From NCBI GenBank assembly GCA_038207395.1, contig JBBQZW010000001.1, forward strand, positions 13,530 through 77,529: DNA of 64,000 nt, read 5' to 3'. The stretch is from Minisyncoccia bacterium. Its GTDB lineage: Bacteria > Patescibacteriota > Minisyncoccia > Phycocordibacterales > Phycocordibacteraceae. The position numbers and the translations under genes are program-made. Within the stretch, counting starts at the first letter, position 1, and each line of letters starts with the position of its first letter. The notes under the pieces are model-generated. The model did no database searches and was not told where the DNA came from. It saw only the letters and a program-made list of their open reading frames with translations. Below, piece by piece: positions 15,603-60,641 of this stretch.

Positions 15603-16601
15603 ATGACTACGTATGAAGTACTTGCAACGCCGTCTGCGTCAGGAATTTCGCTCTTCGGAGCGGATGTCCTGCAAGGGCTCAGTAAACGCAAAAAGCAAAT
15701 ACCCGCTCGGTATTTCTATGATGATCGAGGGAGTGAGCTGTTTGATCAGATTACTCGGCTACCTGAATATTACCCGACTCGAGCCGAGACGAGCATTCTG
15801 AGCGCGAATGCAGACTTGATCTGCGAGCTCGTGGGCACTGAACCAACCGACATTGTCGAGCTGGGCTGCGGCTGCGGACCCAAAACGTGGGATTTGCTTG
15901 GTGCACTTCTTTCGAATGGTGCCGATATCAGATATCGCCCCATCGACATTTCAGAGGGTGCGATGAGTACACTTTACACTGAGCTTGACCGCCGCTTTGG
16001 TAGTCGCCTTGAAGTTGAAGGTGTCGTCGCCGAATATAACGGTGGACTTGCTCACTTGAATGCACAAAGCACCAAAAAAGGCCGTAAGAAGCTGATCTTG
16101 TTCTTCGGAGCAAATATCGGCAACATGACGGACCCCGAAGCGGTGCAGTTCCTGCGTGAACTTGGTGAATATATGCAGCCTGAGGATCGACTCCTTATTG
16201 GATTTGATCTGAAGAAGGACCTGCACATTCTTCAGCAAGCATATGATGACAGTCAGGGCATCACAGCTGAATTTAATCTCAACCTTCTGGCACGAATGAA
16301 TCGGGAACTTGGTGCGGATTTCGATCTCACTAACTTTACGCATCACGCGTTTTACGATCCTGCTCGTGAAGCCATGGTCAGCTGGATAATCTCTTTGGAG
16401 GCTCAGCAAGTCAGGTTTAAGGGCATGATTGGAAACCCGACGTTCATATTCCGTGAGCTTGAAGGAATCTGGGTTGAAATGTCTCGTAAGTTCAGTACTG
16501 ATGACATATCAGTACTTGCTCAACGCAGTGACCTGATTGTCGAAAATTGGCTCTTGGATTCTCAACAAATGTTCGTTAATACGATTTTAAGACGTGCGTA
16601 A
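15603..16601 (+). CDS. egtD: EgtD-family SAM-dependent L-histidine N-alpha-methyltransferase
   Basis: YFYDDRGSELFDQITRLPEYYPTRAE, FFGANIGN, LLIGFDLKKD and AYDDSQGITAEFNLNLLARMNRELGADFDL closely match mycobacterial EgtD. Confidence 0.85.
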   Translation: MTTYEVLATPSASGISLFGADVLQGLSKRKKQIPARYFYDDRGSELFDQITRLPEYYPTRAETSILSANADLICELVGTEPTDIVELGCGCGPKTWDLLGALLSNGADIRYRPIDISEGAMSTLYTELDRRFGSRLEVEGVVAEYNGGLAHLNAQSTKKGRKKLILFFGANIGNMTDPEAVQFLRELGEYMQPEDRLLIGFDLKKDLHILQQAYDDSQGITAEFNLNLLARMNRELGADFDLTNFTHHAFYDPAREAMVSWIISLEAQQVRFKGMIGNPTFIFRELEGIWVEMSRKFSTDDISVLAQRSDLIVENWLLDSQQMFVNTILRRA

Positions 16602-16708: not shown

Positions 16709-17329
16709 TTAACGCACTGCGAGCTGTGAGGAAGCTTCTACCATACGTACGAGTTCAGCCTGCGTTGAAGGAATATCCTTAACGTTAATCTTGCCGATCA
16801 CGCGAATGGTGACTTTGCCACACAAACCGAGTGCACGCCCTGGGTTGATCTGGCGTCCGTTATGAGAGACCGTGTTGTCCTCATCAAGCAATACGTCCAC
16901 CGTGTTTGTGATTCGAGTATTCATAGCATCCGCAATAACGCGGTAGCCAATCTGCGACTCAACCTTCTTGTATCCACATGAAGGAGTGTCTGCATTTTCT
17001 CGATCAAGCTCGATGATCGTACCGTACGGAAGCTTTTTTGCGAGATCGCCGGAGCGAGCCGCAACAACTTCAGGGTTCGAGAACGCGCCGCTCGCAGTCC
17101 AAAACGGGTTGTTATCCGTCTGAGCAGGAACAGCATTATATGCGGTGAGCTTGGTTGTGAGGGTAATTGGTGCTACGGGAGCAATAACTACCATCGGAGC
17201 CGGAAGTCGTCCAACCGAAGTTGAACTCGCTACTGCTACTGGCGTCGTTGCTTGCGCAGAGGCGACGGGAGCGGTAACGCTTGCCGGCAAAACCATAAGA
17301 CCCACCAGAACGGGTATTAGGAAAGGCAT
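16709..17329 (-). CDS. secreted 3D-domain protein (MltA/RlpA-like cell-wall binding or lytic fold)
   Basis: Signal peptide. TAYNAVPAQTDNNPFWTASGA is characteristic of the 3D domain. Confidence 0.7.
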   Translation of the reverse strand: MPFLIPVLVGLMVLPASVTAPVASAQATTPVAVASSTSVGRLPAPMVVIAPVAPITLTTKLTAYNAVPAQTDNNPFWTASGAFSNPEVVAARSGDLAKKLPYGTIIELDRENADTPSCGYKKVESQIGYRVIADAMNTRITNTVDVLLDEDNTVSHNGRQINPGRALGLCGKVTIRVIGKINVKDIPSTQAELVRMVEASSQLAVR

Positions 17330-17509: not shown

Positions 17510-20425
17510 TTACGGAATTAAGTTTAGAATCTTACCCGCTCTATAGATAACGCGGCTGGGAGTACCTGTTGGAAATGCCTTTGCTACGTTTGGTTCAGAG
17601 AGTGCAGCTTTGACCGCTTCTTCCTCAGTCGCTGAGGGTGAAATCTGTATTTCTCCTTTCCGTTTCCCTGCTATTTGCACTCCTATAATCACAGCATCTT
17701 CCGTGAGAAGGGTCTCATCAAAGGAAGGCCAGGGAAGTTGGTGGATACTTTGCTCTGAAGGAAGTGCCCCTTCGTTAACTGAAATTTGCGCGTACATATG
17801 TTCGGTAAGATGCGGCGCAAATGGAGAAAGTAGCGTTAAGAAAGTACCAAAGCCGTCATGCGAAATATGGTCTTGGGTTTCGAGCGCATTAACAAGAATC
17901 ATAAGCGCAGAAACTGCAGTATTCAATTTAAAACGCTCTATATCTGCTGACATTTTTATCGTCGCCTTAGCAAGCGCTTTTTGTTCAGCTTCTGTGGCTG
18001 GAGCATCACTAGTTTTTGTACGAAGTGCGTAGCATCGATCAAGGAAACGGCGCATCGCCTCTATGCCTTCTGGTTTCCAAGGATAGTTACCCGGTTCGTT
18101 ATACGAACCAATAAAGGAAAGGTACATGCGTACCGCATCAGCACCATACTTTGCCACCACTTCATCAGGATTAATAACGTTTCCTTTTGATTTCGACATC
18201 TTTTGTCCGTCAGGACCTATGATAAGTCCGCGGTTGTATCGCTCGTAAAACGGTTCAGCGGTTGGAACAAGCGCAAGATCGTACATTGCCTTGTAGAAGA
18301 ACCGTGAATACAAAAGGTGCAGAGTCGTGTGCTCCGCTCCGCCTGAATACCGATTAACAGGAAGCCAGTTTTTCATCACCTCAGTGCTTGAAAATTGTTT
18401 TTCATCATGAGGCGCAAGATACCGCATGAAGTACCATGAAGAATCTACGAAGGTATCAAGTGTGTCACACTCAGGTGTCCAGCCTTCGCCAAATATTCCG
18501 GTAACGCGGTCTTTGAGTTCTTTGCTTGTTGCGAGCGGAGATACCCCTGATGGGGTGAAATCTACGTCAGTGGGCAAAAGCCAAGGTAGGTGTTCGCTTG
18601 GTACCAGGTGCGCCTTCCCTTCCGGGTCATAGACAACAGGTATCGGACAGCCCCAGTACCGCTGACGCGAAACTAACCAGTCGCGAAGACGATAGTTCGT
18701 CGTACGTTCACCACCTGCAGCGTCTGTGATGTCTGCCATTGCCTCCTGACTTTCTCTATTGGAATACTCTCCGGAATTAATGAGCGTGCCTGCGTCCGTA
18801 TAAACATAGTGGTCAGAAAAGATTTGCTCAACGGCATACTGATGAGTGCGTGCGGTGAGCTGCTTGCGTAATTCTTCTTTGGATAACCACACAATCTCGT
18901 GCCGTACTTCCTCTTCTGGAGCCACTGCGTCACGCATGTCGCTCGTTAGCTCCATACGTAAAATATGTCCGTGGGTTAGACGGTTTTGCTCTTTAGGAAC
19001 GTGATAAAACAAGCCATCAACAATTCCGTATGACTCAACTACACGTGCATCGGTATATCCTGTTTCTTCTCGTAATTCACGAAGTGCTGTTTCTGCCGCA
19101 GAATCATCACCTTCCATACCACCGGTGAGGAGGGTGGTCCAGCCAACATTTTTCCACTTTAAAGCAAGATATTTTTCTTCCGACCAGTGTCTTATGAGCG
19201 CTATAACTCCATCAGTAATGGTGACTGGTTCGTCTGATTTAAATGCTCCGGGTTCTTCCGTTTGTACGAGGCGGGGTGCAACAACTTGAACGATAGGGAG
19301 CTCAAACTTTGTTGCAAATTCAAAGTCACGCTCGTCATGTGCAGGAACGGCCATAACCGCACCTGTTCCGTATGAGCCCAGTACATAGTCAGCGACAAAG
19401 ACCGGAATTTCCTCTCTTGTAAGCGGATGAATGGCCATGATGCCTGTAAGTTGTACCCCTGTTTTTTCTTTATTCTCCATGCGCTCCCGCTCTGTTTTCT
19501 TCTTCGCTTCTTCTACGTATGCACGAACTGCAGCTTCGTTTGAGAGCACATCATGCTCACCATCGAGCGCAGCGAGTACCCAGGGATGTTCCGGAGCCAG
19601 CACAAGATAGGTTGCCCCAAAAAGAGTATCGGGCCGCGTGGTAAATACAGCGACTTGGGCGGGGTTGCCGTCAACGTCACGCCACTCAGAATCTTCAGGG
19701 TGTTTTTTAAATGAGAGTGCAAAGGCCAGCTTCGCTCCCTCTGACTTTCCAATCCATTCGCGCTGCGCGCTCTTTATATCTTCGCGCCAAGGAAGTCCTT
19801 CAAGATCTGTGAGAAGTCGTTCTGCATACTTCGTAATAGAAAGAAACCATTGCGTAAGAATACGTTCTTCCACCTCGTGACCACAGCGCTCACAGGTACC
19901 GTTAATAACTTGCTCGTTAGCAAGTACGGTTTGATCATTCGGACACCACTTAACAGCAGCTTCCTTACGCTCTGCAAGCTGATGTTCAAAAAGTCGCGAG
20001 AAAAGCCACTGTGTCCATTTATAGTATTCAGGCGAGCAGGTCGCTACCTCCTTACTCCAATCAAACGAGGCACCCATTGTCCGTACCTGTGCCCGCATCG
20101 TGTCCATGTTTTCATACGTCCACTTTCTAGGATCAAGTCCACGTTTTATAGCGGCGTTCTCGGCAGGAAGTCCGAAGGCATCAAACCCAAAGGGGTAGAG
20201 AACATTTTTACCTTGCATTCGCTTGAAGCGCGCAAAAATATCGGTGATGGCAAAGGCATACCAATGGCCCACATGAAGATCGCCGGATGGGTACGGAAAT
20301 TCAATTAACAGGTAGTACGGATCTTTTGACTGATCAGATAAATCGACCTCATATATTTTTTCTTCATCCCATTTCTTCTGAGCCCATGGCTCTATTTCAG
20401 AGTGATTGTAGAATTCTTTTGCCAT
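17510..20425 (-). CDS. leuS: leucyl-tRNA synthetase with an inserted NUDIX hydrolase domain
   Basis: 971 aa. HVGH, TTRPDT editing-domain signature, GTGAVMAVPAHDERD, NYRLRDWLVSRQRYWG and KMSKS. About 170 extra residues sit between the editing domain and the RLRDW motif. Confidence 0.95.
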   Translation of the reverse strand: MAKEFYNHSEIEPWAQKKWDEEKIYEVDLSDQSKDPYYLLIEFPYPSGDLHVGHWYAFAITDIFARFKRMQGKNVLYPFGFDAFGLPAENAAIKRGLDPRKWTYENMDTMRAQVRTMGASFDWSKEVATCSPEYYKWTQWLFSRLFEHQLAERKEAAVKWCPNDQTVLANEQVINGTCERCGHEVEERILTQWFLSITKYAERLLTDLEGLPWREDIKSAQREWIGKSEGAKLAFALSFKKHPEDSEWRDVDGNPAQVAVFTTRPDTLFGATYLVLAPEHPWVLAALDGEHDVLSNEAAVRAYVEEAKKKTERERMENKEKTGVQLTGIMAIHPLTREEIPVFVADYVLGSYGTGAVMAVPAHDERDFEFATKFELPIVQVVAPRLVQTEEPGAFKSDEPVTITDGVIALIRHWSEEKYLALKWKNVGWTTLLTGGMEGDDSAAETALRELREETGYTDARVVESYGIVDGLFYHVPKEQNRLTHGHILRMELTSDMRDAVAPEEEVRHEIVWLSKEELRKQLTARTHQYAVEQIFSDHYVYTDAGTLINSGEYSNRESQEAMADITDAAGGERTTNYRLRDWLVSRQRYWGCPIPVVYDPEGKAHLVPSEHLPWLLPTDVDFTPSGVSPLATSKELKDRVTGIFGEGWTPECDTLDTFVDSSWYFMRYLAPHDEKQFSSTEVMKNWLPVNRYSGGAEHTTLHLLYSRFFYKAMYDLALVPTAEPFYERYNRGLIIGPDGQKMSKSKGNVINPDEVVAKYGADAVRMYLSFIGSYNEPGNYPWKPEGIEAMRRFLDRCYALRTKTSDAPATEAEQKALAKATIKMSADIERFKLNTAVSALMILVNALETQDHISHDGFGTFLTLLSPFAPHLTEHMYAQISVNEGALPSEQSIHQLPWPSFDETLLTEDAVIIGVQIAGKRKGEIQISPSATEEEAVKAALSEPNVAKAFPTGTPSRVIYRAGKILNLIP
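18758..19270 (-). other. NUDIX hydrolase domain inserted within LeuRS (residues ~386-556)
   Basis: Nudix box GDDSAAETALRELREETGY, flanked by a typical Nudix beta-strand region (VTITDGVIALIRHWSEEKYLALKWKNVGWTTLLTGG...). Confidence 0.7.
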
Positions 20426-20445: not shown

Positions 20446-21432
20446 CTAGTAGACTGGCTTTGGCACTGAAGCTGGGATAGCTGGGTAGAGCGCAGGGTCA
20501 ATGTAGTTACTAAAGCATGTGCGTCCCATCTGATGATTCCAAATATTGTTTACCCCACGCCCAGGAGGAACGGCTGCTCCATATCCGGTACCATTCCCAT
20601 CTAGTGCAAACGTTGCACAGAGCTCAAACCCTACTTTCCCATCTGAAGACTTTGCCAGTCCTTTATATTCATACGCCGCTTCTGTTTTAGGGTCTCCAGG
20701 AACCTGGTACCCAGTGAAGCTATTGTTGAGTGCGCTTAGGGACGAAGGCAGTATCTGCTTCACCTGCCAGTACGAAAGTATCTCAGACTGTATTCTTTGC
20801 AGGTCTTCAACACGCTGAGTGTCAAAGCGTACGTCACGTGCATGAGCTGGAGTACCGATGATTAGGAAGCCCCCAATAACCGTCATGATTGCGAGTGCAC
20901 CTACGGCCGCCCCAACAATGTTTACCTTCCGACGATGCAGTGTCCAGTATCCTTTTAGATCAGCAAGGAAGTGCAGGATAACGAGCACGGCCATAAGTAG
21001 AACGATAAGCGCCTTAAGCGTAAAGCGAATGGTGATATCGCCGCCGAAGAATGCGGAAAGGAGGGTGATGAGGTCAATCACCGCCGTCGCTGACGCAAGG
21101 AAAATAGTAAACACGAGCGCCCATCTGCGCACCCAGATATTTGCCTTCCCTGGTTCGCGCACGATGTCACGACGAATGGTGAGAAGGAGGCCAAGCATTG
21201 TAGGAATCAGCACGACGATGGTGGCCATTGCAACTCGTACTCCGGTACTATACGGGTCATATGAGTATGAAAGCGGATCAGGAAACGCGAAGTTTATATA
21301 CTGAAACAAAAGGGTGAAAAACGAGATAATCCCACCGTAGAGTGCAATAACAGCACCTGCCCAAAGAAAGAAATCCTTAGGAGTTGTCTTCGACGTCCTG
21401 GCTGCGTGATGACTTTCTGTAGTGTGTTCCAT
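20446..21432 (-). CDS. integral membrane protein with extracytoplasmic C-terminal domain, unknown function
   Basis: 328 aa with multiple TM segments. Resembles conserved CPR membrane proteins of unknown function. Confidence 0.5.
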   Translation of the reverse strand: MEHTTESHHAARTSKTTPKDFFLWAGAVIALYGGIISFFTLLFQYINFAFPDPLSYSYDPYSTGVRVAMATIVVLIPTMLGLLLTIRRDIVREPGKANIWVRRWALVFTIFLASATAVIDLITLLSAFFGGDITIRFTLKALIVLLMAVLVILHFLADLKGYWTLHRRKVNIVGAAVGALAIMTVIGGFLIIGTPAHARDVRFDTQRVEDLQRIQSEILSYWQVKQILPSSLSALNNSFTGYQVPGDPKTEAAYEYKGLAKSSDGKVGFELCATFALDGNGTGYGAAVPPGRGVNNIWNHQMGRTCFSNYIDPALYPAIPASVPKPVY

Positions 21433-35583: not shown

Positions 35584-35656
35584 TGGACCCTAGCGGATTC
35601 GAACCGCTGACATCTTCATTGCAAATGAAGCGCTCTACCAACTGAGCTAAGGGCCC
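35584..35656 (-). tRNA. tRNA-Ala (anticodon UGC)
   Basis: Hand-folded 73-nt cloverleaf: 7-bp acceptor stem with the G3:U70 alanine identity pair, GCTC/GAGC D-stem, anticodon loop TTTGCAA, TTCGAAT T-loop, A73. CCA not encoded. Confidence 0.8.
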
Positions 35657-58562: not shown

Positions 58563-59033
58563 ATGCGGCATTTCACGCTTGCACTTCTTATTGACGAAGA
58601 ACACCAAACGATTTTGCTGGGCAGAAAAAAGACTGGTGACTATGGTATTGGCACCCTTAACGGACCAGGCGGCTCGTTAGAGGATGGCGAATCGCCTCTT
58701 GAGGGCATAATCCGTGAGACGCGCGAAGAGTTTGGTATTGAACTTGCACTGGATGAAGTGCAGCCCGTTGCAACGCTGACCTGCCATGCTGGTGGTACAC
58801 CAGACGCACTCGTACACGTTTTTATATCCCATAAATGGAGTGGGGCTCCAAAAGAAAGTGACGAGATGATTCCCACCCTAGTTCCCCTATCTGCTATTCC
58901 ATACGAGCATATGCTTGAGGGTGATAGACACTGGATGCCACGTGCACTGAACAAAAATAGCGAACCTTTTTGTGCACATATTTTCTATGCCAACCGAGCA
59001 AGGGGGTTTGTTGGTATTGAGTTTGATGAGTGA
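58563..59033 (+). CDS. NUDIX hydrolase (MutT-like)
   Basis: Nudix box GGSLEDGESPLEGIIRETREEFGI. 12 nt downstream of the pseudouridine synthase gene. Confidence 0.85.
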   Translation: MRHFTLALLIDEEHQTILLGRKKTGDYGIGTLNGPGGSLEDGESPLEGIIRETREEFGIELALDEVQPVATLTCHAGGTPDALVHVFISHKWSGAPKESDEMIPTLVPLSAIPYEHMLEGDRHWMPRALNKNSEPFCAHIFYANRARGFVGIEFDE

Positions 59034-60570: not shown

Positions 60571-60641
60571 CTGGGGGAGAAGGATTCGAACCTTCATAGA
60601 CGGCACCAAAAACCGTAGTCCTACCCTTAGACGATCCCCCA
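60571..60641 (-). tRNA. tRNA-Gln (anticodon UUG)
   Basis: Hand-folded 71-nt cloverleaf: U1:A72 and G73 (bacterial tRNA-Gln hallmarks), anticodon loop TTTTGGT, GGTTCGAATCC T-arm. CCA not encoded. Confidence 0.8.

Follow-up and report, generated by a model that had tools for sequence, protein, structure and literature searches.

The window analysed here is a 64,000-nucleotide stretch of contig JBBQZW010000001.1 (positions 13,530 to 77,529 of the forward strand; assembly GCA_038207395.1) from a Minisyncoccia bacterium. Its reverse strand carries leuS, the gene for a bacterial-type leucyl-tRNA synthetase (LeuRS) of 971 amino acids (aa), and within the CP1 editing domain of this protein lies a second module, predicted to be a Nudix hydrolase. 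The host and its nested module are arranged as follows, in window coordinates and with the residue numbers of the 971-aa protein.

17510..20425 (-), leuS, encoding the 971-aa LeuRS, stop codon included, from the list of open reading frames
20264..20275 (-), HIGH motif (HVGH, aa 51-54)
19280..19762 (-), part of the CP1 editing domain upstream of the insert (aa 222-382), covering positions 1-146 of the Pfam tRNA-synt_1_2 profile
19625..19642 (-), TTRPDT editing motif (aa 262-267)
19325..19342 (-), AHDERD editing motif with its conserved Asp (aa 362-367)
18800..19279 (-), Nudix module (aa 383-542, APRLVQTEEPG...SDHYVY), the segment missing from the syntenic ortholog P0027
18854..19153 (-), Pfam match to PF00293 NUDIX (aa 425-524)
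19055..19123 (-), Nudix box GGMEGDDSAAETALRELREETGY (aa 435-457), in which E450, E453 and E454 are the metal-binding glutamates
18992..19006 (-), X-loop about 17 residues past the box, F473-Y474-H-V-P and then the near-invariant K478, with Y474 at +17 from the box end
18911..18913 (-), E505, a conserved acidic residue 3' of the box, which analogy to other Nudix proteins marks as a candidate catalytic base or extra metal ligand
18692..18799 (-), CP1 tail downstream of the insert (aa 543-578, TDAGTLINSGEY...GGERTTNY, then YRLRDW), aligning with the insert-less P0027
18188..18202 (-), KMSKS motif (aa 742-746)

The host is an intact bacterial-type LeuRS. Its match to the NCBIfam model TIGR00396 (leuS_bact) reaches 875.2 bits against a cut-off of 548.4 and falls into two stretches, broken near residue 385, while Pfam recognises tRNA-synt_1, tRNA-synt_1_2 and Anticodon_1 together with PF00293 NUDIX. 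The HIGH and KMSKS signatures and both editing motifs are present, each invariant in 98 aligned homologs. With these motifs intact, the host would be expected to leucylate tRNA(Leu) and to edit hydrolytically. A full-length AF2 model of the protein (pLDDT 87.5, pTM 0.76) matches the LeuRS structures of E. coli, T. thermophilus and N. gonorrhoeae at E ~1e-72 and TMt 0.81-0.86.

Borders, signature and predicted fold of the nested module

The insert borders are defined by P0027, an 805-aa ortholog on a JGI metagenome contig that shares 75% core identity with the window protein and lacks exactly the inserted segment. Its gene neighbours are those of the window, with a DUF5671 protein, leuS and a conserved 206-aa protein. 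The window protein reads ...PIVQVV, then APRLVQ...SDHYVY, then TDAGTLINSG..., and P0027 passes directly from ...PIKEVV to TDSGTLVDSG..., placing the junctions at VV/AP and VY/TD. Because this syntenic ortholog is insert-less, the true insert can be set at aa 383-542. The original prediction had described about 170 extra residues at LeuRS residues ~386-556; the extra segment is real, and the interval 18758..19270 corresponds exactly to aa 386-556, but the length measured against P0027 is 160 aa. The segment had also been placed past the end of CP1. Instead, the Pfam tRNA-synt_1_2 match breaks off after profile position 146 of 185 and the rest of CP1 (aa 543-578) follows 3' of the Nudix domain. 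The Nudix domain is nested inside CP1, at a surface loop in the late part of that domain, and CP1 is in turn inserted in the Rossmann fold.

Against a gathering cut-off of 21.1, PF00293 scores 38.8 bits (E 1.1e-9) when the entire protein is searched and 44.1 bits (E 2.5e-11) when the excised segment is searched alone. The box is laid out as G435-GMEGD-D441-SAAETAL-R449-E450-L-R-E453-E454-T-G456-Y457 and follows the consensus GX5EX7REUXEEXGU with one conservative deviation, D441 in place of the first Glu; its REx2EE core is intact in the window protein and invariant in relatives. The complete Nudix signature claimed earlier is therefore present as a full box at aa 435-457, although the string then quoted (GDDSAAE...) begins four residues into it.

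Modelled alone from a 35-sequence alignment, aa 383-546 give a beta-sheet/helix sandwich at a mean pLDDT of 95.5 and a pTM of 0.88. In the full-length AF2 model the secondary structure of the insert is unchanged, with 10-residue blocks at pLDDT 83-95. A Foldseek search of the PDB with the insert model returns 529 matches at E<=1e-3, and the matches listed are Nudix-fold proteins. The closest structure is 2AZW, a free-standing MutT/Nudix protein of Enterococcus faecalis (UniProt Q836H1) that is just 17% identical. Judged from these models, the segment is almost certainly a real nested Nudix fold, of the alpha/beta/alpha sandwich type. A NUDIX profile match and an autonomous fold were the first checks named in the original prediction; the profile match is above threshold, and the predicted sandwich appears both in isolation and in the complete protein.

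Across 115 insert-bearing homologs, identity to the window protein is 59-83% for whole proteins and 24-79% (median 33%) for the inserts. G435, E450, E453, E454 and W513 are nonetheless invariant in all 115, K478 and E505 are conserved in 114 (E505 as Glu), W424 in 112, and position 473 is aromatic throughout. Position 474 is Tyr in 53, Phe in 51 and Cys in 7; the first box Glu, Asp in the window protein, is Glu in 71, Gln in 19 and Met in 9. Among 160 domain copies taken from 50%-identity cluster representatives, conservation is 96% or higher for E450, E453, E454, K478, N481 and W513, and E505 is kept in 137 (~86%). This holds in every context in which the domain occurs, namely the window's insertion site (site B), a second site (site A), fragments and free-standing proteins. 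Selection on a metal-dependent active site predicts such a pattern, and the domain is, on this evidence, probably catalytically active. Since the metal-binding glutamates are conserved, its predicted chemistry is divalent-cation-dependent hydrolysis of a nucleoside-diphosphate-X substrate.

Distribution, insertion sites and relatives of the insert

PF00293 is carried by 119 of the 120 best LeuRS homologs (59-100% identity), drawn from NCBI, JGI, ENA and Logan, which also answers the original prediction's call for a comparison with related genomes. Where source names are given, these homologs come from Parcubacteria, Paceibacterota, Pacebacteria or Patescibacteria, the taxonomic spread being judged from source names only. 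A HMMER search with aa 386-556 against 1.84 billion cluster representatives retrieves 321 proteins at E<=1e-3, with 146 at E<=1e-10. LeuRS and fragments of it make up most of the best 150 of these 321 representatives, among which no further synthetase was recognised as a host. The Nudix subfamily is nearly confined to LeuRS of Patescibacteria. One named match comes from a Candidatus Saccharimonadales source, and the feature therefore reaches past Paceibacterota.

The insertion is not an assembly product. A protein identical to the window LeuRS (P0001) sits on a 268-kb NCBI contig, synteny is conserved for P0002 (83% identical) and P0004, read on 8 and 10 contigs respectively, and no break in base composition or GC occurs at the insert borders. 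An assembly chimera, which the original prediction had named as the outcome that would overturn it, is ruled out by these independent assemblies, by the conserved order of the DUF5671 gene, leuS and the 206-aa gene, and by the even composition. An intein or mobile element is ruled out as well: no intein or endonuclease domain matches in Pfam at E<=1 in the 971-aa protein, and the insert borders carry no terminal repeats, only short repeats at chance level.

Nudix domains occupy two sites in or next to CP1. Site B is that of the window, and site A lies after ...LTDLD, just before the WIGKSEG strand that enters CP1. A LeuRS holds one to three copies. For example, P0121 has two copies at site A and one at site B, P0124 has two, both at A, and P0273 (1430 aa) has three tandem copies at site A and none at the window's site. 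P0122 is also among the LeuRS with two or three Nudix copies. Copies inside one protein are 19-46% identical, the exception being the tandem pair of P0131 at 75%.

The similarity of the insert does not follow that of the core, as a comparison of close relatives with the window protein illustrates.

P0002: core identity 84%, insert identity 80%
P0003: core identity 84%, insert identity 28%
P0004: core identity 82%, insert identity 28%

In P0014, P0024 and P0029, by comparison, overall identity to the window protein is 62-64% and the inserts are 47-53% identical. In a sliding window, identity falls at about residue 376 and recovers at about 556, the insert borders. Over all sequences, core and insert identity to the window protein correlate at -0.33, and among the 99 pairs with core identity above 80%, 43 have insert identity below 40%. 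Clustering resolves about seven insert types, less than 40% identical between types, which are interleaved on the core clustering and share an identical junction. In types 1, 2 and 4, within-type insert identity (0.70-0.74) equals that of the core (0.69-0.74); within-type inserts are thus as conserved as the core, and the types are therefore old paralogs. By these comparisons, insert and LeuRS core have discordant histories, which reflect either recombinational cassette replacement or a multi-copy ancestor with differential loss. Fast divergence alone was considered as the cause and is ruled out, both by the within-type match to core conservation and by the fact that the window's insert type is closer to inserts of more distant LeuRS.

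The subfamily also has members outside intact LeuRS. Free-standing members of 155-190 aa exist, one of them named MutT-like by JGI. The 182-aa P0137 lies in a one-strand gene array (locus L045, 2482-11389, GCA_023245955.1) made up of MetRS, TatD, P0137, an HD/YfbR-like nucleotidase, a generic Nudix gene and an insert-less 823-aa LeuRS, and this array may be the unfused counterpart of the fused arrangement. Two others, P0155 and P0156, are not near leuS. Moreover, the Nudix domain is joined to CP1 fragments in proteins of 273-294 aa (P0216, P0235, P0202, P0220, P0230, P0269) and in P0229, of 388 aa. In P0216 and P0235 the C-terminal half of CP1 precedes the Nudix domain and the CP1 tail follows it, and AHNQED or AHNQDH replaces the AHDxRD motif. 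P0216 (L051, 3063-3884, and L052, 2468-3289), read on 11 contigs, has a CYTH gene on either side and adjoins genes for a nucleoside 2-deoxyribosyltransferase and a cytidylate-kinase-like protein. In addition, related LeuRS carry other nested domains.

P0239: nested Ham1p_like/RdgB domain (aa 984-1167); its cluster member P0277 is named 'RdgB/HAM1...' by NCBI
P0211 and P0151: nested HAD_2 domain (~aa 640-808)
P0206, P0123 and P0064: nested alpha/beta hydrolase domain (~aa 245-360); P0206 is named 'alpha/beta fold hydrolase'

Proposed function and competing readings

In the proposed mechanism, the Nudix domain would work as a Mg2+-dependent pyrophosphohydrolase on a small nucleotide-derived compound and would act as a house-cleaning or salvage module covalently tethered to LeuRS. 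Its best candidate substrates would be adenine dinucleoside polyphosphates (Ap3A-Ap6A) or similar Np(n)N, the weakest step of the proposal. Such Ap(n)A would arise when enzyme-bound aminoacyl-adenylate meets ATP or ADP, and Nudix hydrolysis would give AMP, ADP or ATP back to the organism. Patescibacteria are presumed to depend on salvage for nucleotides. Aminoacylation and editing by LeuRS would proceed independently of the Nudix domain, because a close syntenic ortholog, P0027, has no insert.

The strength of these steps differs. A house-cleaning or salvage role on small nucleotides is slightly favoured, because the free-standing members have nucleotide-metabolism neighbours, sister LeuRS contain HAM1 and HAD modules, and the lifestyle is presumed to be salvage-based. 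The lean towards Ap(n)A derives from the structural neighbours, a lupin match, the position of Tyr474 and Ap4A formation by synthetases. Specifically, the best PDB sequence match of the insert profile is lupin Ap4A hydrolase (E 1.6e-7, in the box region), and Y474, at +17, aligns with what we take to be Tyr87 of human NUDT2. A Tyr in the X-loop, ~16-18 residues past the box, coincides with Ap(n)A activity (the motif of Dunn et al.; PMC5389931), and synthetases make Ap4A from aminoacyl-adenylate (LysU; PMC9437257). The assignment to an Ap(n)A-type substrate in particular is tentative and rather doubtful. The best overall explanation, an active tethered nucleotide hydrolase with Ap(n)A as the leading substrate guess, is about evenly balanced between being right and wrong.

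The original prediction had suggested clearance of Ap4A, which is plausible, or of a misactivated aminoacyl-adenylate. Hydrolysis of Leu-AMP or another aminoacyl-adenylate as the main role is judged unlikely on chemical grounds: an aminoacyl-adenylate is a mixed anhydride, not a pyrophosphate, and its hydrolysis would be atypical for a Nudix enzyme.

Several observations weigh against the proposed mechanism. The function of the closest structure, 2AZW, is listed as undetermined (PMC5389931), and it allows no functional transfer. No substrate-specific NCBIfam model matches: the RppH, NudB and MutT1 equivalogs score 12-26 bits against cut-offs of 103-475, with the RppH PRK00714 series at 12-20 bits (cut-offs 116-241), MutT1 at 13 bits (475) and NudB at 26 bits (103). 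At +17, no more than about half of the family has Tyr and most of the others have Phe, the first box Glu is Asp in the window protein, and R449 is Lys or Ala in 36 of 115 relatives. No literature singling out LeuRS as a notable Ap4A producer was found. Finally, the unrelated nested hydrolases and the easy loss and exchange of the insert fit a passenger unlinked to LeuRS chemistry equally well.

Such a passenger is the best surviving alternative, a lesser yet substantial possibility. The domain would be a MutT-like sanitiser of the nucleotide pool, chemically unconnected with leucylation, and its substrates would be non-canonical or oxidised (d)NTPs or similar compounds; CP1 loops would tolerate insertions, and fusion would provide constitutive co-expression in a minimal genome. 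The HAM1/RdgB domain of P0239, the HAD domains of P0211 and P0151 and the alpha/beta domains of P0206 and P0123 fit this account, as do the clean loss in P0027, the swapping of insert types among close relatives and the MutT-like name that JGI gives to one free-standing member. However, the subfamily consists mostly of LeuRS or its fragments and has no other synthetase as host among the best 150 of 321 representatives, and both sites used lie in or beside CP1. The 273-294-aa proteins, moreover, retain a piece of CP1 on the Nudix domain, which suggests that the two work jointly, and the MutT-type equivalog models remain unmatched.

A more far-reaching reading, which we regard as speculative, treats the LeuRS of Patescibacteria as a scaffold for exchangeable, nucleotide-directed hydrolases. 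Its Nudix cassettes, of no fewer than seven ancient types, occupy two CP1 sites in one to three copies, with HAM1, HAD and alpha/beta modules placed in other parts of the protein. The Nudix domain and the adenosine-binding CP1 pocket would jointly destroy adenylate-derived compounds at their source, such as Ap(n)A, Np4 caps or toxic Leu-AMP mimics of the agrocin-84/TM84 type. Cassette turnover would then mirror selection for changing substrates, for example the toxins of antagonists, and would not be neutral.

An RNA-end enzyme is improbable. On this account the domain would resemble RppH or a decapping enzyme and act on 5'-triphosphate, Np4- or NAD-capped RNA, possibly tRNA(Leu), with LeuRS providing the RNA-binding platform. 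Among characterised enzymes, AvrM14 has the longest alignment to the profile, and in LeuRS-tRNA complexes (entries such as 4ARC and 2BTE) CP1 is in contact with the tRNA acceptor end. RNA in E. coli is, furthermore, capped by synthetase-made Np4A (PMC9437257). Against these points stand RppH equivalogs far under their cut-offs, free-standing members whose neighbours belong to nucleotide metabolism and not to RNA processing, and a variation in copy number, with loss, that would be odd for tRNA maturation.

Less probable still is a non-catalytic module, a ligand sensor or a structural or tRNA-binding appendage that would modulate LeuRS, for instance via Ap4A or ppGpp. Non-enzymatic members of the Nudix clan exist, according to the clan review (PMC5389931), and both the Asp at the first box Glu and the variability of R449 would suit such a role. 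The three glutamates, K478 and E505 are, however, near-invariant across very divergent copies, as catalysis predicts, free-standing copies retain the same residues, and the LeuRS of a close relative does without the domain. The last reading, an artefact or a selfish remnant (assembly chimera, intein or mobile element) without cellular function, agrees with the presence/absence polymorphism and the cassette-like exchange and is effectively refuted by the in-frame segment in 119 of the 120 closest homologs across four data sources, by the GC evenness and missing element signatures described above, and by the strongly conserved catalytic residues.

Neighbouring genes, novelty and known systems

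The remaining features of the window are a set of genes around leuS and elements further along.

16709..17329 and 20446..21432 (-), genes flanking leuS, for a DUF5671 membrane protein and a 206-aa protein without a Pfam match
15603..16601 (+), gene for a 332-aa histidine-specific S-adenosylmethionine-dependent methyltransferase (Pfam Methyltransf_33, 314 bits)
58563..59033 (+), separate free-standing generic Nudix gene, box GSLEDGESPLEGIIRETREEFG (Pfam NUDIX, 45 bits)
35584..35656 and 60571..60641 (-), tRNA genes (Rfam RF00005, 72.8 and 55.5 bits)

The three-gene order around leuS is conserved in L001, L049 and L050. The methyltransferase gene, which we take to be of the EgtD-type family, was not seen in the matching stretch of these loci, where other genes lie past the 206-aa gene; it was apparently acquired in this lineage alone, and such a gene is unusual in a minimal genome. 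The generic Nudix gene falls outside the LeuRS-associated subfamily, with a score of 10.9 bits against that subfamily's profile. Within the window, no further Rfam family, rRNA included, reaches its gathering score.

Both parts of the protein belong to well-known families, LeuRS and the Nudix superfamily, and no published description of their combination was found. The original prediction knew of no NUDIX insertion in LeuRS, and a search of 8 million full texts, with subscription-only titles outside it, likewise found no description of the architecture; tRNA synthetases go unmentioned in the Nudix clan review (PMC5389931). Precomputed Pfam annotations do show the architecture; protein names do not. 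Many of these proteins are named 'class I tRNA ligase family protein' by NCBI and some after the passenger domain ('RdgB/HAM1...', 'alpha/beta fold hydrolase'), and the annotation of Patescibacteria LeuRS could be improved.

The best-known examples of synthetases with added domains are eukaryotic, and most such domains are non-catalytic. In the case described here the synthetase is bacterial, and its proofreading domain encloses a second, predicted and apparently active enzyme. This layout is conserved throughout a large radiation of uncultivated bacteria and is modular: a LeuRS can hold one to three copies at two sites, the inserts fall into about seven ancient types, and the domain is occasionally lost. 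If cassettes are exchanged at a fixed site, this would be an unusual case of natural domain swapping inside an essential gene. If the Nudix domain clears adenylate-derived by-products, the synthetase itself would tie translation to the nucleotide economy of organisms believed to be salvage-dependent, and the long-debated handling of synthetase-made Ap(n)A would become testable in one polypeptide.

Among known systems, the solved LeuRS of E. coli (4AQ7/4ARC) and T. thermophilus (2BTE/1H3N) share domain order, motifs and the anticodon-binding and C-terminal domains with the window protein, and solved LeuRS superpose on the model of the 971-aa protein at TMt 0.81-0.86 and 30-34% identity. They differ in length, the solved chains among the matches listed having at most 876 residues against 971 here, where a 160-residue Nudix domain is added within CP1. 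The nested domain itself was compared with Nudix Ap(n)A hydrolases including human NUDT2 (4IJX), T. thermophilus Ndx1 (1VC8) and M. tuberculosis Rv2985 (9CXX). The lupin enzyme (1F3Y/1JKN) is closest in the box region, and the Tyr at +17 is placed as in NUDT2; yet identity of the insert to these enzymes, Chlamydia CT771 (4MPO) among them, is 14-23%. The NCBIfam family NF040702, 'isoleucine--tRNA ligase, N-acetyltransferase domain-containing', likewise joins a small-molecule enzyme domain to a class I synthetase of the Ile/Val/Leu group. It differs in its host enzyme and in its GNAT fold, which takes the place of Nudix, and its model scores 79 bits on the window LeuRS, through the core only, against a cut-off of 1999.

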